Shown here: positions 5,001-63,134 of the stretch, in pieces | How the letters are laid out: each line of letters opens with the position of its first letter | Numbering within the stretch: the first letter of the stretch is position 1 | Virus record (IMG/VR): IMGVR_UViG_3300010429_001617 | Direction: 5' to 3' (one strand) | DNA length: 64,000 bases | Origin: a virus | Lineage: Duplodnaviria > Caudoviricetes | Position numbers and translations under genes: made by a program | Notes under the pieces: generated by a model | Database searches by the model: none | Seen by the model: only the letters and a program-made list of their open reading frames with translations | What the model was told of the DNA's origin: nothing

Positions 5001-5056
5001 AAATTTGATTATTCCTTGAATGAAAATTCAGGGATTTTTTTTAATATATAAATACT

Positions 5057-5404
5057 ATGAAGCATTTAAAATTATACGAAAACCAAGAAAAATTTCTTTC
5101 CAAAGAGTTTTCTATTTATGATCTTAATGAAAAATATCGGCGTGAGGTTATAATAATGTTAGTAACAAATAATACAAAAAACAAATATGTTGAATTTTAC
5201 ACTTATCCAGAATACGAGAAAAAAGAAATATTTGTTAAAGAAGTTTATGAAAAAAGAATTTATAATAAAACTACAAATAAAATTGAATGGGAGTTCTATT
5301 TCATAGATGACAAAGGAGTTGAATATCGTGTTTCAACATCAAGAAGAAAAATCAAATGTTATGCTATCAGAAATGAGGATGATCCTTGGCTTGAAGATTC
5401 TTAA
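5057..5404 (+). CDS. small protein with MKHLKLYE leader and C-terminal DDPWLEDS tag
   Basis: Both peptide motifs present; TAATATATA at 5042. Confidence 0.65.
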   Translation: MKHLKLYENQEKFLSKEFSIYDLNEKYRREVIIMLVTNNTKNKYVEFYTYPEYEKKEIFVKEVYEKRIYNKTTNKIEWEFYFIDDKGVEYRVSTSRRKIKCYAIRNEDDPWLEDS

Positions 5405-8604: not shown

Positions 8605-9358
8605 ACCAAGATGTTGTAGATTGTTCCTTTATATATGTCTTAACTTCATCAACCATTTCTTTACCTTGTGAAATAATATCACTGGCATTGTATGTGAAAT
8701 TGCCCGGCAATTGGAAATTGAATCTACCTATTAACTCTCCCATTCTAGAACGACAAGTACCAATCACAAATCTTTTAAACATTTCAAAATCAAATAGTTC
8801 TTCCTCTTGGACTCTAACCCAACATTCTAACACAAGATCTGTTGGTTCAGAACTATTTGAAATGCTACCCAAGAAATGTAATCTTTTGTTTATGTGATTA
8901 TAACTAAACATTACTGTATTTTTTGTCAATTTATTGATTTCATCCGCGAAATAACTAATTGTTGAGCGATATAACGCCAAATCTCCAGCTGTTGTGACGA
9001 ACGATGTTAAAAAAGGTTGATTTGTAACACCAAGATTTATAGAAAGATGTGGAGCCTGAATACCCAATCTAAACATCGATGAGTCCTCTACTCGAATTAT
9101 TTTTGTAATGTTTTCAACTTCCTCTGGTAAAATTAAATATTGAAATCGATTATATAAATCCCTCATTGCCCAGTCATAGACCATATAATAATAAGCTTTC
9201 TGGACAGCGAATTGATAATTTTTATAGAACCATTCCAGTACAATTTCTTTTATCATACGATGAACTTCTTTATCTGGTAAAACCTTTGGTAAAGCACCTG
9301 AAAAAGTTAGATCTTGTTGTACTATATCTATTAATTGTTCAATTGTGATCGATGCCAT
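8588..9358 (-). CDS. gp13-like neck / head-completion protein
   Basis: C-terminal FNFQLPGNFTYNASDIISQG resembles the gp13 LPGGvtlng motif; late promoter at 9381. Confidence 0.6.
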   Translation of the reverse strand: MASITIEQLIDIVQQDLTFSGALPKVLPDKEVHRMIKEIVLEWFYKNYQFAVQKAYYYMVYDWAMRDLYNRFQYLILPEEVENITKIIRVEDSSMFRLGIQAPHLSINLGVTNQPFLTSFVTTAGDLALYRSTISYFADEINKLTKNTVMFSYNHINKRLHFLGSISNSSEPTDLVLECWVRVQEEELFDFEMFKRFVIGTCRSRMGELIGRFNFQLPGNFTYNASDIISQGKEMVDEVKTYIKEQSTTSWFKMSR

Positions 9359-9466
9359 ATAAATTTATATTTTTTTAATCTATATATTAAAATCTTAATC
9401 GTTAAAAATTTTCACTTTTTTAATCATGGGCGCTCGTTATTTTAATATATAATAATTAAAAAACAT

Positions 9467-11278
9467 ATGAACAATTTAAAAAATATAATAAATGAAAAAA
9501 AGAATAATATAGGAGCGTTATGTATTTATATAAAAAAAAGAGAATATTTAGAAGAACAATTAGAAAAATATTTAATCGATAACAAAATAGAAATAGAATT
9601 GACTCTATCTCAGAAAATATGGTGTTATGATAATAGTGAAACAAATATTCTTTGTGGCTGTGGTAAAATGAAAAAATGGAAAGATTTTAAATCTGGATGG
9701 CGCATTACGTGTGGAAACAAAAATTGTATCAACAATAAAAGAAAAGAAACTAATATCAGTGTTTATGGATGCGATAATCCATTAAAGAATGAAAAAATTA
9801 GAGAAAAAGTGGAGCTGACAAACATAAAGAAATATGGGGTGTCAGTGGCATCAAAAAATCAATTTGTTAAAGAAAAAATATCAAAAGTTCTACAAAATAG
9901 AGACAACATTCATAAAGAAAAAACCAAAAAAAAGAAAATAGAAAGTTGGAAAAATAAAAATGAAGATGATAAGAAAATCATTAGACTAAAAAGAAAAGAT
10001 AAAATGGATCGAAAAACATTAGATGAAAAAAAATTGATAGATTCTAAAAGAAAAAAAACTTGTTTAAATAGATATGGTTCTGAATATGCTATAAGCTCAA
10101 AAGAGATTAGAAATAAAATCGAAAAAATTTTTATGAAAAAATATGGGGGGAAATCCCCCTTTTCCAATGAAGATATTGTAAAGAAATCCATTGATAGTTA
10201 CAAAAACGGACGAATAGAAGAAATTAAAAATAAATTGAATGATTTTAATGTTGAATATGTCTCACATATTAATAAAAACAGTGAGTCGTCAAACATCGAA
10301 TATGTTCTAAAATGTAAAAGAACAAACAATTTTTTTAAAATGAGTTACACAAACTTAAGAGTTAGATTAATATCTAAATCAGAAATTTCTCCATTTTTCA
10401 GAGAAAAAAAAGGCACTTCAGATGAAGAAGAAAGATTATTTAATTTTATAAAAGAAATATATGTCGGTGAAATTATAAAAAACACCAAAAATATAATATC
10501 GCCCTTAGAACTAGACATTTATCTCCCAGAACTAAAACTAGCTTTTGAGTTCAACGGTCTTTTTTGGCATAATGAACTCAACAAGTCCAACAACTATCAT
10601 CTTGAGAAAACCGAGTTAGCTGAAAAACAAGGAATAAAGCTTGTCCACATCTACGAGGACGACTGGATGTTCAAACAGGAAATTGTCAAATCAAGAATAT
10701 TAAATTTGTTAAACAAGACTCCGAACAAGATCTACGCTAGAAAATGTGAGATAAAAGAAGTGTTTGATAATAAACTGGTTAGAGAATTTCTTGAGAACAA
10801 TCATATTCAAGGTTTTGTGGGATCAAAGATCAAAATAGGTCTTTTTTATTCTGGTGAACTAGTTTCCTTGATGACCTTTGGAAGCTTGAGAAGAGCAATG
10901 GGACAAAACTCACACGATGGATCCTATGAAATGCTCAGGTTTTGTAACAAACTGAACACCAATGTTATTGGAGGAGCTTCGAGACTGTTCAAATTCTTTG
11001 TTAAAAATTTTGAGCCAAAAGAAGTAACTAGTTATGCTGATCGTAGCTGGAGTCAAGGAGATTTATATAAAAATCTTGGTTTTGAACTTATCAGAAAAAC
11101 CGAGCCAAATTATTATTATGTTATTGACGGCGTGAGGAGGCACAGGTTTGGTTTTAGAAAAGATCATCTCGTTAAAGAAGGATTTGATCCTTTAAAGACC
11201 GAACACGAAATAATGCTCGATAGAAAAATTTATAGAATTTATGACTCAGGGAATTTAAAGTTTATAAAAAATTTATAA
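9467..11278 (+). CDS. putative homing endonuclease, paralog of 6961..8604
   Basis: C-terminal ~280 aa highly similar (ELDIYLPELKLAFEFNGLFWH...YDSGNLKF); different N-terminal region. Confidence 0.75.
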   Translation: MNNLKNIINEKKNNIGALCIYIKKREYLEEQLEKYLIDNKIEIELTLSQKIWCYDNSETNILCGCGKMKKWKDFKSGWRITCGNKNCINNKRKETNISVYGCDNPLKNEKIREKVELTNIKKYGVSVASKNQFVKEKISKVLQNRDNIHKEKTKKKKIESWKNKNEDDKKIIRLKRKDKMDRKTLDEKKLIDSKRKKTCLNRYGSEYAISSKEIRNKIEKIFMKKYGGKSPFSNEDIVKKSIDSYKNGRIEEIKNKLNDFNVEYVSHINKNSESSNIEYVLKCKRTNNFFKMSYTNLRVRLISKSEISPFFREKKGTSDEEERLFNFIKEIYVGEIIKNTKNIISPLELDIYLPELKLAFEFNGLFWHNELNKSNNYHLEKTELAEKQGIKLVHIYEDDWMFKQEIVKSRILNLLNKTPNKIYARKCEIKEVFDNKLVREFLENNHIQGFVGSKIKIGLFYSGELVSLMTFGSLRRAMGQNSHDGSYEMLRFCNKLNTNVIGGASRLFKFFVKNFEPKEVTSYADRSWSQGDLYKNLGFELIRKTEPNYYYVIDGVRRHRFGFRKDHLVKEGFDPLKTEHEIMLDRKIYRIYDSGNLKFIKNL

Positions 11279-13000: not shown

Positions 13001-13036
13001 TCAGCAAAATTATATTTTTTTTTATATATAAAATTT

Positions 13037-14488: not shown

Positions 14489-14672
14489 TTAGTTTGATTT
14501 TTTTATTGATTATATATATTAAATATTTTTTACATATTTTAATTTTTATAAAATTATAATTTATTGGTTTTCATCATTTTAAATAAAAACATGCAACATG
14601 ATCATATATATATTTACTTTTATATTTTTTTTAACGCACTCTTTATATATATATATGTTAAAAAATATCATT

Positions 14673-19728: not shown

Positions 19729-19797
19729 AGATTTTTTTTTTCTTTTTATACCTTATATATTAATTTTTTTTTCTTATTTTTTTTAATATATACAGAT

Positions 19798-44547: not shown

Positions 44548-44570
44548 TTATTTAATTTATTTAAAATGTG

Positions 44571-44653
44571 TAGTCCAGAGCGGATTCGAACCACTGTCGC
44601 TACAGATGTAGTGTCCTCATCTTCAGAAGAAGCGTCCACTAGACGACTGGACC
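44571..44653 (-). ncRNA. tRNA-like RNA lacking a canonical anticodon loop
   Basis: Acceptor GGTCCAG/CTGGACT; T-arm AGTGG-TTCGAAT-CCGCT; enlarged D-loop; anticodon arm CTAC-ATCT-GTAG. Confidence 0.7.
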
Positions 44654-53896: not shown

Positions 53897-53980
53897 AATT
53901 AAATTATTATTTTTTTTTTCATTATATATTAAAATATGAATGTTGTAAAAAATTATTTTAACATTTTAATATATAGATTT

Positions 53981-54733
53981 ATGAAATTCTTGAAAATATA
54001 TGAGCAATTTGAACTGGATGATGATCCTTGGGGTGAAGACTCACCAAGAAAATATACATTTGGAGAGTGGTTTAAGGAAAATTATGGAAATAAAGATCCA
54101 CTGACAATAAAGACAATTGATTGCTATAATAATTCTCTGACCAGTCTCGATGAAATAGAAAACTTGATAAATCTTAGGGAGTTATCTTGTCATCATAATT
54201 CTCTCACCAGTCTCGATGGAATAGAGAACCTGATAAATCTTGAAGAGTTATATTGTTCTAATAATTCTCTCACCAGACTCGATGGAATAGAGAACTTAAT
54301 AAATCTTAAAGTGTTATATTGTTATAATAATTCTCTCACCAGTCTCGATGAAATAGAAAACTTGATAAATCTTAAAGCGTTATCTTGTCATCATAATTCT
54401 CTCACCAGTCTCGATGGAATAGAGAACCTGATAAATCTTGAAGAGTTATATTGTTCTAATAATTCTCTCACCAGACTCGATGGAATAGAGAACTTAATAA
54501 ATCTTAAAGCGTTATCTTGTTCTGATAATTCTCTTGTCAGCCTTGCGGGAATAGAGAACTTAATAAATCTTAAAGTGTTATATTGTTATAATAATTCTCT
54601 CACCAGTCTCGAGGGAATAGAAAACTTAATAAATCTTAAAGTGTTATATTGTCATAATAATTCTTTCTCTGATGAATATAAAGTTCATTTAAAAGATCAT
54701 TGTAAAAAAAGAAATATAAAATTGTACATATGA
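53981..54733 (+). CDS. leucine-rich repeat (internalin-type, 22-aa) protein with leader and DDPWGED tag
   Basis: MKFLKIYEQFELDDDPWGEDS followed by ~8 L.C.NNSLTSLDGIENLINL repeats. Confidence 0.9.
   Translation: MKFLKIYEQFELDDDPWGEDSPRKYTFGEWFKENYGNKDPLTIKTIDCYNNSLTSLDEIENLINLRELSCHHNSLTSLDGIENLINLEELYCSNNSLTRLDGIENLINLKVLYCYNNSLTSLDEIENLINLKALSCHHNSLTSLDGIENLINLEELYCSNNSLTRLDGIENLINLKALSCSDNSLVSLAGIENLINLKVLYCYNNSLTSLEGIENLINLKVLYCHNNSFSDEYKVHLKDHCKKRNIKLYI
54122..54665 (+). repeat. 66-bp tandem coding repeats with a 198-bp higher-order duplication
   Basis: aattctctcaccagtctcgatg.aataga.aac.tgataaatctt recurs; unit order ABC-ABC. Confidence 0.85.
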
Positions 54734-55509
54734 ATCACCTGAAACTATATGAACAATTTAGATATGGTAGAGAACCAGATCTTCGTAGAATGACAAATAT
54801 TGTTAGATGTGTCAAAAGAAATTATGAGCCATATTTTACACTAAACAGATATTATGACGTTAAAATATGGGGAAATCCACAAAGGGCAATAGAAGAATTT
54901 CATATAAATGATTATATTCCAGTTGAATGCGTTTCAAAAATCAGGATAAAATCAAATAGAAGTGATTCGCTGGAATTAGATTTATCTAAAAAACAAGATT
55001 ATAATTTCTTTTTCGATTACTTTGAGTTAGCTGATGGAAAAAAGATGAAAAGAAAACAAAATTTGGAAGATGACCCTTGGAGCGAAGAAAATTGGGGATA
55101 TGAGGAGATAAAAGAAAATTCACAAAATGGTGTGATATCATATAATACCACAAGACATATGAATGATAATGAATTATTATCATTATTAAAGAAAAAAATT
55201 ATTGGAAGAACCATAGATTTTCACGCTTTATGTGAAACTGGTAGAGGAAAAAATATAATACACTATAGAATTAAAGATATAAGAGATTTTTATGTTAAAG
55301 ATGTTTATATTGGTGACGGCGATTTTATTTTCATAGAAGGCGTCGGCAAATATGATGACGATAAGAAATATGAAGCCAGTTATATTTTGAGTAAGACGGC
55401 AGATATATTTTATTCACTAACGAGCGAAGAAATAGAAAAAAGAAGGCAATTAACAGATTTACATAAAGAAGAAGATCCTTGGGGTGAAGAAAATTGGGAA
55501 ATCAATTAA
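54730..55509 (+). CDS. two-module protein with MNHLKLYEQ leader and two DPW tags
   Basis: EDDPWSEENWGYEEIKE|N internal; EEDPWGEENWEIN terminal. Confidence 0.7.
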   Translation: MNHLKLYEQFRYGREPDLRRMTNIVRCVKRNYEPYFTLNRYYDVKIWGNPQRAIEEFHINDYIPVECVSKIRIKSNRSDSLELDLSKKQDYNFFFDYFELADGKKMKRKQNLEDDPWSEENWGYEEIKENSQNGVISYNTTRHMNDNELLSLLKKKIIGRTIDFHALCETGRGKNIIHYRIKDIRDFYVKDVYIGDGDFIFIEGVGKYDDDKKYEASYILSKTADIFYSLTSEEIEKRRQLTDLHKEEDPWGEENWEIN

Positions 55510-55530: not shown

Positions 55531-55917
55531 ATGAAAACAAAATTTGAAAATTTCTTGAACGAGAGTATCTTTGTCGAAAAAGATGATAAAATATTGAGAG
55601 AAATTATATTTATTATCAAAAAATATAATCTGATACCAACATATGAAAGTCAGACAAGATATTATAGAAAGTTTGAATATCTCATAAAGTTGAAAGATAA
55701 GACATTATCAGTTATTTGTGAAAGAGGTGGTTTGGATGACGAGCCTTTTAATGAATATATAATATCTCTAAATAATGAAAAATTAAAGTGCTCTAAATTT
55801 CTGATGTCAAAGATGTGGAGGCTATCAAAACATTTATATGAAAATCAGGATGGTGAAAAAACTAAAAAAGAGATTGATCAAATTGATCAAAAAGAATTGA
55901 TCAAAAGAATAAAATGA
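55531..55917 (+). CDS. small protein with leader MKTKFENFLNE|S
   Basis: Leader motif. Confidence 0.6.
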   Translation: MKTKFENFLNESIFVEKDDKILREIIFIIKKYNLIPTYESQTRYYRKFEYLIKLKDKTLSVICERGGLDDEPFNEYIISLNNEKLKCSKFLMSKMWRLSKHLYENQDGEKTKKEIDQIDQKELIKRIK

Positions 55918-56927
55918 TTATTGATTTTATAACATATATTAACGAACAAATTGAGGATGATAGAAAATACTACATCTATACATTATCGGATCCGATTGAT
56001 GGTGAAGTAAAATATGTTGGCAAGACAAAGGATTTAAAGGATAGGATGTGGAGACATATGGAGCCATCAAATTTAAAAAATGCTTGGACATCTAAAACAA
56101 AATGGATTTTATGGCTTAAAAAACAGGGACTAAAACCAATAATGGATATTTTAGATGAAGGAGATGCCAATAATATAAATGATTTGGAAAGATATTGGAT
56201 ATCTCAAATAAAAACGTGGGGGTATAGATTAAAGAATGACACAAGTGGTGGGCAAGGCGCAGATTATTGGAAAGGAAAAAAATTGTCAAACGAACATAAA
56301 TTGAAAGTGAAAATGAACAATCCTTTGAGAAAAGATATTTGTGAATATGAAATAGGAACAGATAAATTATTGGCTGAATATATATCTGTTCGTGAAGCTA
56401 GTAAAAAAACTGGACATACTGAGTATGCGATCATAAGTAGTTGTAAAGGATTATCAACGCCGGATAAATTTGGTGTCTATTGGAGATATAAAGATAATTA
56501 TTTTCCATATGAAGCTAGAGATTTGAAACCAAGTGAGGAAACTATTCAAAAAATAAAATTAAAACAACATAGAAATAATATTTGTCAGTATGAAATTGGA
56601 ACAGATAGATTATTATCGACATATGAATCGAGTTATGATGCCGAAAGAATAACTGGAATAAATAGATCCCACATAATGAAATGCTGTAGAGGAATAAAAA
56701 ATTATAACTCTGTTGGTGGATATTACTGGAGATTTGAAGATAATTATTTTCCATATGAACCACCAGCAAATAGACCCATAAAAATAGAACAATATGATAA
56801 AAATGGAAATTTAATTAAAATATATAACTCTACATACGAGTTGAGAAAAGAATTAAAAATAGATTTTAGAGCCATAATTAAAAATAATTATGATTATCTT
56901 GGATATGATTGGAAAATTAAAAAATAA
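55914..56927 (+). CDS. GIY-YIG homing endonuclease with NUMOD1-like repeats
   Basis: YIYTL...KYVGKT...R...H, LERYWI, GGQG; repeated ICQY...Y.S..EA...TG...I..CC.G. Confidence 0.85.
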   Translation: MIIDFITYINEQIEDDRKYYIYTLSDPIDGEVKYVGKTKDLKDRMWRHMEPSNLKNAWTSKTKWILWLKKQGLKPIMDILDEGDANNINDLERYWISQIKTWGYRLKNDTSGGQGADYWKGKKLSNEHKLKVKMNNPLRKDICEYEIGTDKLLAEYISVREASKKTGHTEYAIISSCKGLSTPDKFGVYWRYKDNYFPYEARDLKPSEETIQKIKLKQHRNNICQYEIGTDRLLSTYESSYDAERITGINRSHIMKCCRGIKNYNSVGGYYWRFEDNYFPYEPPANRPIKIEQYDKNGNLIKIYNSTYELRKELKIDFRAIIKNNYDYLGYDWKIKK

Positions 56928-56939
56928 ATAAATAAAAAC

Positions 56940-58541
56940 ATGAAAAAAATGAATTTAATAAATTTAACGGAATTTGATAAATTTGTCGAAATGATGAACG
57001 AAAGCGTAAGTGGTTCAGTACGAAGCCGTTTTGCCCCTTCGCCTACAGGCGCACTTCACCTTGGGGGGGTGCGAACCGCGTTATATAATTATCTTTTCGC
57101 AAAAAAACATAATGGTGTGTTTTATTTAAGAATTGAGGATACTGATCAGGTTCGTTTTGTGCCAGGCGCCGAAGAATATATTAGAAAGTCTTTAGAGTGG
57201 TGTGGAATTTCACCGGATGAATCTCCTTGGCAGGGTGGGCCTTACGGTCCTTATCGTCAATCAGAAAGATATGACATATATCCAAAATATGCTAAAGAAT
57301 TAGTGGATAAGGGTAAAGCCTATTATTGTTTTGACACACCAGATGATATAGAAAATATGAAATCTAAACTCTTAGAACAGGGAGTTGCTTCACCTCAATA
57401 TGATGCTAACACCAGAATGATGATGAAAAATTCTCTAACTCTTTCAGCAGATGAAGTTCAACATTTATTGGATTCAAAAGCTCCTTTTGTCATTAGAATA
57501 AAGTTTCCAGAAGACACACAAATAGTTGTTAATGATATAATTAGAGGAACTGTTGTTGCCAACACAAACACATTGGATGATAAAGTTTTATTCAAATCAG
57601 ACGGACTACCTACTTATCACTTGGCTAATGTTGTTGATGATCATTTAATGAAAACATCGCACGTTATACGTGGAGAAGAGTGGTTGCCAAGTGCTCCGCT
57701 TCATTTCTTTTTATATGAGGCATTCGGTTGGGATACACCAGAATTTGCTCATCTTTCATTAATATTGAAACCAAGTGGGGCTGGAAAATTGAGTAAAAGA
57801 GATGGGGACGCTTTAGGATTTCCAGTTTTTCCTTTAAAGTGGACGGATCCTAAAAATCCAGATGCCACATCAAAAGGATATAAAGACAGCGGTTATTTGC
57901 CTGAAGCTTTCATAAATATGTTGGCTTTTCTTGGTTGGAATCCAGGAACAGAGCAAGAAGTTATGACAATGGACGAGCTCATACAATCTTTTTCATTAGA
58001 AAGATGTGGTAAAGCTGGAGCTCGTTTTAATATAGAAAAAACGAAATGGTATAACGGACAATATATTAGAAAAATGTCTGATGAAGAGGTTTTTGATGAA
58101 TTAAAAAAATCACTGGATGAAAGAGGAATAGATTTACCAGATGGAACTATAAAGAAAATGATAGAAATGAATAAGGGTAAAGTTAATTTTGTTTCAGATA
58201 TATATGAAGCTTCTTTATATTTATTTGAAAAACCAGAAACATATGATAAGAAAACTGTCGAGAAGAAATGGACAGAAAAAAGCCCTGAGGTAATTTCTAA
58301 TTTGAGAGAAGTTTTAGAAGGTGTCCACGATTGGTCAGGTGAAAATATTCAAAGAGCATTTGAAAAATATGTTAATGAAAATCCTGATTTGAATTTTGGT
58401 ATGGTTGCTCCGGCATTGAGACTTGTTTTAACTGGTATGGGTAATGGTCCATCACTATTTGATATTATGGAAATCATCGGTAAAGAAGAAACGTTAAATA
58501 GAATGACAAATTATAATATACAAGTTAAAAAGAAAAAATAG
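56940..58541 (+). CDS. gltX: glutamate--tRNA ligase with extra N-terminal leader
   Basis: RFAPSPTG.LHLGG, LRIEDTD, PYRQSER, VIRGEEW, KLSKRDGD..GFPVFPL (Bacteroidota-type), anticodon-binding domain present. Confidence 0.95.
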   Translation: MKKMNLINLTEFDKFVEMMNESVSGSVRSRFAPSPTGALHLGGVRTALYNYLFAKKHNGVFYLRIEDTDQVRFVPGAEEYIRKSLEWCGISPDESPWQGGPYGPYRQSERYDIYPKYAKELVDKGKAYYCFDTPDDIENMKSKLLEQGVASPQYDANTRMMMKNSLTLSADEVQHLLDSKAPFVIRIKFPEDTQIVVNDIIRGTVVANTNTLDDKVLFKSDGLPTYHLANVVDDHLMKTSHVIRGEEWLPSAPLHFFLYEAFGWDTPEFAHLSLILKPSGAGKLSKRDGDALGFPVFPLKWTDPKNPDATSKGYKDSGYLPEAFINMLAFLGWNPGTEQEVMTMDELIQSFSLERCGKAGARFNIEKTKWYNGQYIRKMSDEEVFDELKKSLDERGIDLPDGTIKKMIEMNKGKVNFVSDIYEASLYLFEKPETYDKKTVEKKWTEKSPEVISNLREVLEGVHDWSGENIQRAFEKYVNENPDLNFGMVAPALRLVLTGMGNGPSLFDIMEIIGKEETLNRMTNYNIQVKKKK

Positions 58542-60234: not shown

Positions 60235-60329
60235 AATATATTCTTTTGTTTTTTGAATATTTTATTTATATATATAAAAAATATTGAGTCAAAAATTTAA
60301 TATATAACATAACAAATAACATCAATTAA

Positions 60330-61115
60330 ATGATCGATAAGTTTATACAATTCAATGAGTCAAGGAGATCTAAAAAAAGAAGATTTCATGGAATAGAAAG
60401 AAATTATAATAGATATAATAGAAGTTTAGAGGAATCTTCACCAGAAAATGGCATGAAACTTGATGTTTCTCCACGATTTAAGGCTGTTGTAGAAAAGATG
60501 GTCGGAATTGGTGGCCTGATAGCTAAAAATCTTTTAGAAGAAATAAATAAAAAAGAAAGACTGTTTAAAATATCTTATATAGATATATCTAGAAATCTAG
60601 ATATGTTGACATATTTACCTTTATCTGAAAAAAACTCTGGAACCGATCCTTATAAAAATCCAAAAAGAATTGGTTCTAAAATATATAAGGTCATAAGAAT
60701 GCTTTTCGAAAATAGTGTCACAAAAGAAGAAATTCAAAAATTTGTATCTGTTTTTAAAAAGGTTTGTAGTTCCGATCCAGAACGACCTTCTCCAAAACCA
60801 AAAACTGAAGTTTCAGGTGTCAAAGAAGACAAAAAAACAAATAATGAGATAATATTCAAATTAATTGAAGACACTATAGAAAATAAAATTAAGTGGGAGA
60901 CAGTACAGAACACAGATAATCTAGAAAGTTATAGGACCATTGTTAATATAACAAATAATAAAAAATTAGAAATTGATGTGTTTATAATGAAAAAAAATAT
61001 TGATCTCAGTAGTTTATCTATATTTTATATAATTAATAAAAATAATAATTTTATAAAAAGTATAAAATTTTCTGAAATAAAAGAATTTGAAGATTTGATT
61101 GAATTAATTAGATAA
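60330..61115 (+). CDS. hypothetical protein with leader MIDKFIQFNE|S
   Basis: Late promoter at 60298; paralog at 61452. Confidence 0.6.
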   Translation: MIDKFIQFNESRRSKKRRFHGIERNYNRYNRSLEESSPENGMKLDVSPRFKAVVEKMVGIGGLIAKNLLEEINKKERLFKISYIDISRNLDMLTYLPLSEKNSGTDPYKNPKRIGSKIYKVIRMLFENSVTKEEIQKFVSVFKKVCSSDPERPSPKPKTEVSGVKEDKKTNNEIIFKLIEDTIENKIKWETVQNTDNLESYRTIVNITNNKKLEIDVFIMKKNIDLSSLSIFYIINKNNNFIKSIKFSEIKEFEDLIELIR

Positions 61116-62508: not shown

Positions 62509-62546
62509 ACTCTCATTTTATTCAATTAAACTACAGGACCTCTATG

Positions 62547-62618
62547 TGCGACTGGATGGATTCGAACCACCGACGAATTGCATGTAACACAATCACTCTA
62601 CCCCTGAGCTACAATCGC
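62547..62618 (-). tRNA. tRNA-Val(TAC)
   Basis: GCGATTG/CAGTCGC acceptor; ATTGT-GTTACAT-GCAAT anticodon arm; GGTGG-TTCGAAT-CCATC T-arm; no encoded CCA. Confidence 0.85.
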
Positions 62619-62629
62619 TTATATATGTG

Positions 62630-62700
62630 TGTTCCCGAATGGAATCGAACCATTGCCATTTGAATGTGACTCAAATATTCTCCCTTTAAACCACAGGAAC
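62630..62700 (-). tRNA. tRNA-Val(CAC)
   Basis: GTTCCTG/CGGGAAC acceptor; TTTGA-GTCACAT-TCAAA anticodon arm; AATGG-TTCGATT-CCATT T-arm; no encoded CCA. Confidence 0.8.
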
Positions 62701-62759
62701 AAAAAATGACAAAAAATGATTAAAAAGTATTAATATATAGAATAAAAATTATTTTTATT

Positions 62760-63134
62760 ATGAAAACATATTTAGAATTTTTAAATGAACAAGCCGCTCC
62801 AGCACCCGCTCCAGCACCCGCTCCAGCACCCGCTCCAGCACCCGCTCCAGCACCCGCTCCAGCACCCGCTCCAGCACCCGATCCAGCACCGCCCGCTCCA
62901 GCCACACAAATCCCAAAAAGAACAACTTCTTATGGTGGGAATTTAGCGAGAGCTAATGATGATAAGGTTCATGAAATAATATATAAATTAACACCTCAAA
63001 CAAAAACTGATCTTCAAAATGTTTATAAGAAAGTATTAGACGAAATCCATAAGACATTTAAAGATGATCCATCTATGACTACAAGAGATATTGCAACTGC
63101 TGTAGGAAGTATAATGTATAATCAGCAGGGATAA
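62760..63134 (+). CDS. putative internal head protein with MKTYLEFLNE|Q leader and (AP)14 linker
   Basis: Leader closely matches the T4 IPII/IPIII capsid-targeting sequence MKTYQEFIAE; late promoter at 62731. Confidence 0.7.
   Translation: MKTYLEFLNEQAAPAPAPAPAPAPAPAPAPAPAPAPAPAPDPAPPAPATQIPKRTTSYGGNLARANDDKVHEIIYKLTPQTKTDLQNVYKKVLDEIHKTFKDDPSMTTRDIATAVGSIMYNQQG
62796..62891 (+). repeat. 12-bp tandem repeat gctccagcaccc x7 plus one degenerate copy
   Basis: Read directly; encodes APAP. Confidence 0.95.

Follow-up and report, generated by a model that had tools for sequence, protein, structure and literature searches.

Why would a phage attach a short N-terminal leader to a glutamyl-tRNA synthetase (GluRS), a translation enzyme whose cellular relatives begin almost directly at the catalytic core? 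The question is raised by gltX, an open reading frame (ORF) at nt. 56940-58541 (+ strand, 533 aa) of a 64,000-nt stretch of viral DNA (IMG/VR record IMGVR_UViG_3300010429_001617; Duplodnaviria, Caudoviricetes), the whole of which is referred to here as the window. The window is phage DNA (~29% GC) encoding a baseplate wedge protein, a head-tail adaptor, tail proteins, and several homing endonucleases, and, among public records, LR756501 and LR756503, 735-kb assemblies titled "uncultured phage", come closest to it. The answer we favor, at a probability of roughly 0.5, is that the leader would dock the GluRS precursor in the prohead, that a prohead protease would cut it after residue E21, and that the mature enzyme would be packaged and injected. 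A broader claim is more tentative, at a little under even odds: that huge phages of Bacteroidota package and inject a working GluRS, that at least two lineages came to do so independently, that pre-delivered tRNA-Glu charging has been selected for the first minutes of infection, and that the enzyme is one of dozens of ejected enzymes that a single short tag addresses.

By its sequence, the window ORF is a full-length class I bacterial-type GluRS with intact signature motifs and predicted activity. It comprises a catalytic (Rossmann) domain (residues 27–370, nt. 57018-58049; Pfam PF00749 tRNA-synt_1c, E 2.8e-92) and an anticodon-binding domain (residues 401–523, nt. 58140-58508; PF19269 Anticodon_2, E 4e-30). 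The HIGH-type motif (H40-L-G-G43, nt. 57057-57068) and the KLSKR motif (K283-L-S-K-R287, nt. 57786-57800) occupy columns that are invariant in an alignment of 84 phage and cellular sequences. The AlphaFold model of the protein has a mean predicted local distance difference test score (pLDDT) of 91.4 and a predicted template modelling score of 0.85, with the core above 90 throughout.

In a database search, cellular GluRSs of Flavobacteriales/Cryomorphaceae (503–514 aa, 56–60% identical) had 6–9 residues ahead of the core motif F-A-P-S-P-T-G, compared with 30 in the window enzyme, which leaves an extension of ~21–24 aa. The metagenomic and phage relatives (518–605 aa, 58–100% identical), which include a close copy on a 168-kb contig, all carried ~20 further N-terminal residues. 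An initial annotation, made from the window sequence alone, had described a complete GltX with ~22 extra residues; the domains and motifs agree with this, and the alignment with cellular GltX, which it had suggested as a check, confirmed the extension. The leader itself spans residues M1–E21 (MKKMNLINLTEFDKFVEMMNE; nt. 56940-57002, + strand), ends in M-N-E with a predicted cut after E21, and is followed by a flexible linker, S22–S26 (SVSGS; nt. 57003-57017, + strand), which would form the mature N-terminus as judged from sequence and model. The junction, M19-N-E21|S22, thus reads hydrophobic-x-Glu followed by a small residue, as in a prohead-protease site.

In trees built from the enzyme core alone, the extended GluRSs form a single clade (clade A; 58 tips, all with a leader; support of 1.0 in FastTree and 100 in the Shimodaira–Hasegawa-like approximate likelihood ratio test), nested within leaderless cellular GluRSs. 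The clade A leader follows the pattern M-K-x-M-x-L-x-N-L-T-E-F-x-x-F-x-x-[ML]-[MK]-x-E, or a shorter form such as MKNYPNFINE, after which come [S/N]-[V/I]-x-G and the V-R-x-R-F of the core. Among 52 distinct clade A sequences, the junction Glu (P1) is invariant in all 52, P3 is M, L, I, or F, P1' is S, N, or G, and P4' is mostly G. Between the predicted cut site and the core motif there are typically 8–14 residues (two higher values being artefacts of the automated choice of site), whole-codon insertions and deletions are confined to the linker, and in each clade member the extension keeps both its reading frame and its hydrophobic pattern. An apparent leaderless exception, P0108, has a miscalled start, its upstream DNA encoding MNILRGYQDFVRLMNE|SISG in frame. 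On this pattern of conservation, the extension is translated and under selection.

In the AlphaFold model, the leader forms an amphipathic helix at residues 9–18 (pLDDT ~47–52 over residues 1–20), followed by coil at residues 19–27; this isolated, low-confidence helix on a flexible linker suggests a modular tag rather than a part of the enzyme. The leader codons have a GC content of 20.6%, compared with 42.7% over the next 300 nt, a step at the junction that would be expected if a piece native to the phage had been joined to a gene acquired from a cell.

Leaders are also found on GluRSs outside clade A. A second, separate lineage with leaders includes LR756504 (..KKDYSDFLKE|S with a 27-residue linker) and clade C, a large group whose contigs reach 770 kb and whose GluRSs carry MKYIKxRxKFLxE|S/N followed by ~40 acidic residues, the genes adjoining them bearing MKYLKIFEDF-type leaders. 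The second leader lineage is split from clade A by well-supported nodes holding leaderless sequences, and an approximately unbiased (AU) test, for which the groups were named after the first tree had been seen, rejected a single clade, and with it a single origin, for all leader-bearing GluRSs (delta log-likelihood of 362.7, p 6e-50). The trees thus indicate that leader-bearing GluRSs arose at least twice, independently. Phage GluRSs lacking a leader were also noted, namely P0125, which begins inside the gene before it, and P0228, from an "uncultured marine phage" contig of 656 kb. Gain of a leader on two backgrounds, together with its occasional absence, points to an address label and not to an integral part of the enzyme. 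We rejected the idea that leaders are a general feature of phage aminoacyl-tRNA synthetases (aaRSs), given that the LeuRS-like class Ia synthetase of LR756501 (nt. 191952-194245, − strand, only 508 aa) starts directly at its catalytic core. Independent gain on GluRS and absence from another aaRS of the same genome argue that the combination of this enzyme with a leader was itself selected.

The GluRS extension appears, by sequence, to belong to a family of leaders that resemble the capsid targeting sequence (CTS) of phage T4, end in hydrophobic-x-Glu, and mark 6–10% of the proteins of these phages. We counted ORFs in which a strict motif, [FYW]xx[FYW]x(0-2)[LIVMF][NKQSTA]E, starts at residues 3–14, using later 12-residue segments of the same ORFs as background. 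The motif occurred at this register in 7 of the 74 window ORFs (0–1 in later segments), which bears out the leader pattern that the initial annotation had invoked, and in 60 of the 962 ORFs of the whole LR756501 record (0–5 in later segments). In T4, used as a control, it picked out 3 of 245 ORFs (0–2 in later segments): IPII, IPIII, and one ORF-calling artefact. More broadly, similar peptides head many unrelated window ORFs, among them MKTKFENFLNE|S, MKTYLEFLNE|Q, MLKFKDYLNE|S, MKIKFVDFILNE|E, MLINFKQFLINE|Q, and MIDKFIQFNE|S, the leader bearers being mutually unrelated (mean column identity of 7%). Most have no Pfam family; the few enzymes are a PPK2, an S-adenosylmethionine methyltransferase, and a nucleotidyltransferase, and those in the window include a DHH-like protein and a DUF192 protein. 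This profile, ORFans with a few enzymes, resembles what might be expected of a set of ejected effectors.

A second leader flavor, MK[HY][IL]K[LIK][YF]E[QDS]F (e.g., MKHLKLYEQF..), is often followed by an acidic stretch and heads unrelated small proteins, as at nt. 1193-2354, 5057-5404, and 53981-55509 of the window and nt. 9332-9931 and 19879-20430 of L054, one of them a DUF192 protein and one a leucine-rich repeat (LRR) protein. The same flavor was also observed at the head of clade C GluRSs in other huge phages.

In T4, the CTS is found on IPI, IPII, IPIII, and Alt (Mullaney & Black 1996, reviewed in PMC3012670 and PMC5694885). It is described as the sole conserved part of otherwise diverse injected proteins, docking them to the scaffold core before being removed by gp21 (PMC3012670, PMC5694885). 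T4 IPII and IPIII begin MKTYQEFIAE|A and IPI begins MKTFKEF...ITE|A; the leader of the window ORF at nt. 62760-63134, MKTYLEFLNE|Q, is identical to that of IPII/IPIII at 7 of 10 residues. The T4 CTS pattern MK.[YF].EF[IL].E is seen in the window neighbors MKTYLEFLNE and MKTKFENFLNE, as well as in GluRSs from relatives (MKNYPNFINE, ..FREFKKLNE).

A T4-type head is encoded by the relative LR756501. Its portal gene (at nt. 71969; Pfam Portal_T4, E 1e-69) stands in a row with a gene for an 807-residue protease-scaffold fusion (phrog_207 head maturation protease, E 5e-27) and one for a gp23-like capsid protein (Pfam Gp23, E 1.8e-25). While the fusion scored 22.9 bits against Pfam S77, under the 27-bit cut-off, it aligns with T4 gp21 through the ..NRN.R.Y.., (N/D)HP, and VSSR motifs. 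By eye, the N-terminus of the capsid protein is weakly like that of gp23, with ..Q-M-N-E|N-V-G-Y-A-T-L-N.. near the gp23 cut position. Runs of paralogous leader genes lie near the head module and sheath-like genes (nt. 97350-101399) of LR756501, at nt. 61904-66169 and 93714-97317, and their products are candidate major internal proteins.

We propose that huge phages of Bacteroidota with T4-type heads captured a GluRS from a Flavobacteriales-like host, and that the captured gene was then given one of the phage's own N-terminal leaders. The leader would dock the GluRS precursor onto the prohead scaffold core, where a gp21-like (S77) prohead protease would cut after the invariant Glu (..M-N-E|S-V-S-G..); the mature enzyme, with the N-terminus SVSGSVR.., would remain in the head and enter the cell with the DNA. 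Once inside, it could charge tRNA-Glu, a tRNA for which related phages have genes of their own, before any phage gene is expressed. An early start for phage translation and the phage's own tRNAs, or resistance to host interference with charging, is a plausible benefit because of these tRNA-Glu genes (3 of the 59 tRNA genes of LR756501). The more specific rationale of the initial annotation, that an injected GluRS would counter HipA-family kinases, did not hold up. HipA phosphorylates the serine of the KLSKR motif in Escherichia coli GltX; the phage enzyme keeps this serine and should be at least as sensitive as its host counterpart, and there was no evidence of HipA in these hosts.

Several points weigh against a packaged GluRS. 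The leader of the window enzyme (..FDKFVEMMNE) has one residue too many between the aromatic pair and x-E, and hence fits only a looser pattern than the strict motif; a second subclade of clade A GluRSs (~58–61% identical) does fit the strict motif (..FREFKKLNE|S, MKNYPNFINE|S). The window has no head module (protease, scaffold); the only one observed belongs to a relative with 74% identity in GluRS. Tenacibaculum phage PTm1, which is in culture, is related by portal similarity, and has its head genes arranged in the same way, lacks the leader expansion, the strict motif being at background in its genome (2 of 283 ORFs); on this count, PTm1 was also ruled out as a cultured stand-in with virion proteomics. 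Leaders on 6–10% of all genes would make an unusually large cargo, a homing endonuclease (described below) would be an odd passenger, and there is no indication of why GluRS, of all enzymes, should be delivered in advance. Finally, the phage is uncultured, and the support comes from sequence and a structural model.

The alternative that deserves most attention, unlikely as we judge it, accepts the leader as a real, shared address tag and sends it elsewhere: to a cytoplasmic assembly or compartment, to a hub protein, or into regulated proteolysis or activation, the GluRS being active only inside the cell. It would accommodate the large share of tagged proteins, with a homing endonuclease and many enzymes among them; the head-gene layout of PTm1, which does without the expansion and indicates that a head of this type does not require the tag; and the occurrence of a promoter-like motif, WATATATAR, ahead of replication-type genes as well. 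What favors the capsid over these destinations is that some leaders are near-identical to the T4 CTS and have the x-E end typical of the T4 protease, that the strict motif in T4 selects only true CTS proteins (apart from the ORF-calling artefact), that LR756501 has a T4-type module of portal, protease-scaffold, and capsid protein, and that we know of no alternative system that reads such a tag.

The remaining alternatives deny that the leader is an address at all. It is improbable that the N-terminal pattern is mainly an expression feature, arising from AT-rich first codons or initiation context and having no targeting role. The very AT-rich leader codons (20.6% GC) and the conserved WATATATAR 4–25 nt upstream of many such genes are what this would produce, but conservation is at the amino-acid level (aromatics at i and i+3 and an invariant Glu, with synonymous and non-synonymous change elsewhere), the motif is at least 12-fold enriched at one N-terminal register, and most genes with WATATATAR upstream have no leader. 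Equally, an appendage specific to GluRS, such as a tRNA-binding helper or a partner-docking element that is like other leaders by chance, seems quite improbable. Although appended N-terminal domains or helices are common in aaRSs and the extension is strictly conserved in clade A, the motif family is common to dozens of unrelated proteins of the same genomes, the two leader flavors occur on two independent GluRS lineages, leaderless phage copies exist, the extension is absent from all cellular relatives seen, and the model places it detached and with low confidence. Most improbable of all is an annotation artefact in which translation starts at the internal Met18 or Met19 (MMNES..) and no leader is made, an alternative already raised in the initial annotation. 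The window copy has two Met codons just ahead of the junction, and one gene caller began the relative P0033 there; however, the 17 upstream codons are conserved as protein in >50 relatives, the choice of M, L, I, or F at P3 speaks against selection for Met, and in many relatives the junction has no Met nearby (e.g., ..FKKLNE|SVSG.., MKNYPNFINE|SVNG), so the leader Met must be the start. We rejected the internal start on these grounds, while noting that the window copy may have an extra internal start that gives a second, leaderless form.

In the window, gltX closes a run of five co-directional genes (all + strand) that begins after a promoter-like AATATATAG at nt. 53968-53976. The first encodes an LRR protein (leader MKFLKIYEQF; nt. 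53981-54733), which, with the promoter-like motif standing 4 nt ahead of nt. 53981, probably starts there and not at nt. 53936 as in the longest ORF. It is followed by two leader-type genes (MNHLKLYEQF, nt. 54730-55509; MKTKFENFLNE|S, nt. 55531-55917) and, directly upstream of gltX, by a GIY-YIG/NUMOD1 homing endonuclease gene (nt. 55914-56927; Pfam GIY-YIG and NUMOD1, phrog_314). The endonuclease has a leader-like start, MIIDFITYINE|Q, ~17 residues ahead of the start of a GIY-YIG paralogue in LR756501, and its stop codon lies in the gltX frame, four codons ahead of the gltX ATG. The endonuclease gene is peculiar to this genome, neither LR756501 nor L045 having it ahead of gltX. Adjoining aaRS and homing endonuclease genes were observed both in the window (GluRS) and in LR756501, where the LeuRS-like gene lies directly downstream of a GIY-YIG endonuclease gene.

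Two further leader genes follow downstream of gltX (+ strand), each preceded by WATATATAR: MIDKFIQFNE|S (nt. 60330-61115) and the T4-like MKTYLEFLNE|Q (nt. 62760-63134). In the latter, a long Pro-Ala repeat comes right after the leader, as in a counterpart in LR756501 (nt. 670230-670631, ..NYLQFINE|ADAPPPAPAP..), and its product is a candidate abundant internal head protein. Across three genomes (the window, LR756501, and a 616-kb JGI phage), gltX sits among leader-bearing genes. In LR756501, we also observed a peptide, DPYGEE(N/D)W, that recurs at the ends of ORFs or modules just before the next leader-bearing start (upstream of several leader genes, e.g., nt. 499642-500340, 574913-575341, and 681680-682117), and shortly after some leaders.

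The motif WATATATAR is probably the phage's own promoter element. It occurs at 42 sites in the window compared with 15.8 expected (e.g., nt. 1175-1183, 5043-5051, 13022-13030, 14510-14518, 19753-19761, 53968-53976, 60299-60307, and 62732-62740) and is placed 4–9 or 19–25 nt upstream of many start codons; some mRNAs may have almost no 5' leader. Of the 962 LR756501 ORFs, 183 have the motif upstream, comprising 28 of the 60 leader genes versus 155 of the 902 others. Given that it stands ahead of capsid, sheath, adaptor, and baseplate genes and also of topoisomerase-like and SbcD-like (nuclease-like) genes, we rejected it as an argument for late promoters. For the same reason, and with a homing endonuclease gene immediately upstream, the view in the initial annotation that gltX ends a late operon was not sustained.

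Regarding the tRNA complement, ARAGORN found 59 tRNA genes in LR756501 (nt. 169875-173732 and genome-wide), including three tRNA-Glu, three tRNA-Gln, and two with the amber-reading anticodon CTA. In the window, it found two normal tRNA-Val genes (nt. 62546-62700) and a tRNA-like gene with a four-nucleotide "anticodon" (gaag; nt. 44570-44653, − strand), which is under the Rfam tRNA gathering score.

Our literature search found no description of a packaged phage aaRS, in line with the statement to that effect in the initial annotation, nor of a CTS in huge phages; likewise, it found no account of an aaRS with a CTS-like leader that is conserved and was gained independently, or of how large the leader family is in these megaphages. 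CTS-type leaders and huge-phage aaRS genes are each already known, and it is their combination that we did not find described. If the proposal is correct, the enzyme would be the first example of an aaRS packaged by a phage; "injected proteins" would then extend from small anti-restriction factors to housekeeping-type catalysts, and the retention of aaRS genes by huge phages would have a concrete candidate explanation. If the leader acts as its T4 counterpart does, megaphages would carry a large, addressable protein cargo that includes a core translation enzyme. As a simple and apparently portable sequence rule, the leader could make it possible to predict, with sequence as the only input, which proteins uncultured phages eject.

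Among known systems, the window enzyme resembles the cellular discriminating-type GluRSs of Flavobacteriales/Cryomorphaceae (57–60% identity across the core), with which it has both Pfam domains and the catalytic motifs in common; they differ in starting 6–9 residues ahead of FAPSPTG, without a leader. Huge phages reportedly encode aaRSs, as Al-Shayeb et al. are said to have described in Nature in 2020, and the records LR756501–LR756504 presumably derive from the same study. To our knowledge, such enzymes have been described as cytoplasmic helpers of translation. Like them, the window GluRS is a full-length aaRS of cellular origin from a phage group with genomes of several hundred kb to 735 kb and many tRNAs; the difference is the added N-terminal leader, which we did not find described for those enzymes.

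Giant phages of the phiKZ/SPN3US type provide a parallel for the predicted processing, as the propeptides of their ejection proteins are reported to be cut at x-x-Glu by a gp21-related protease (PMC5694885, PMC10052503). Many head-internal proteins of such phages have N-terminal propeptides that are removed after Glu and are thought to target the prohead, as we predict here; unlike the leaders described here, however, these propeptides are mostly >100 residues and have no short shared consensus, and no aaRS was met among the cargo in the parts consulted.

The closest comparison is the T4 CTS itself. The differences are considerable: ~60 bearers per genome here versus 3–5 in T4, two leader flavors (..F..F[ILV]NE and MK[HY][IL]K.[YF]E.F), a protease fused to the scaffold in LR756501, and, as cargo, a 60-kDa housekeeping-type enzyme whose packaging and cleavage are predicted. 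The likeness lies in the leader, which in both systems is an N-terminal peptide of 10–20 residues common to otherwise unrelated proteins, with aromatics at i and i+3 and a hydrophobic-x-Glu end, as seen when MKTYLEFLNE of the window is set beside MKTYQEFIAE of T4.

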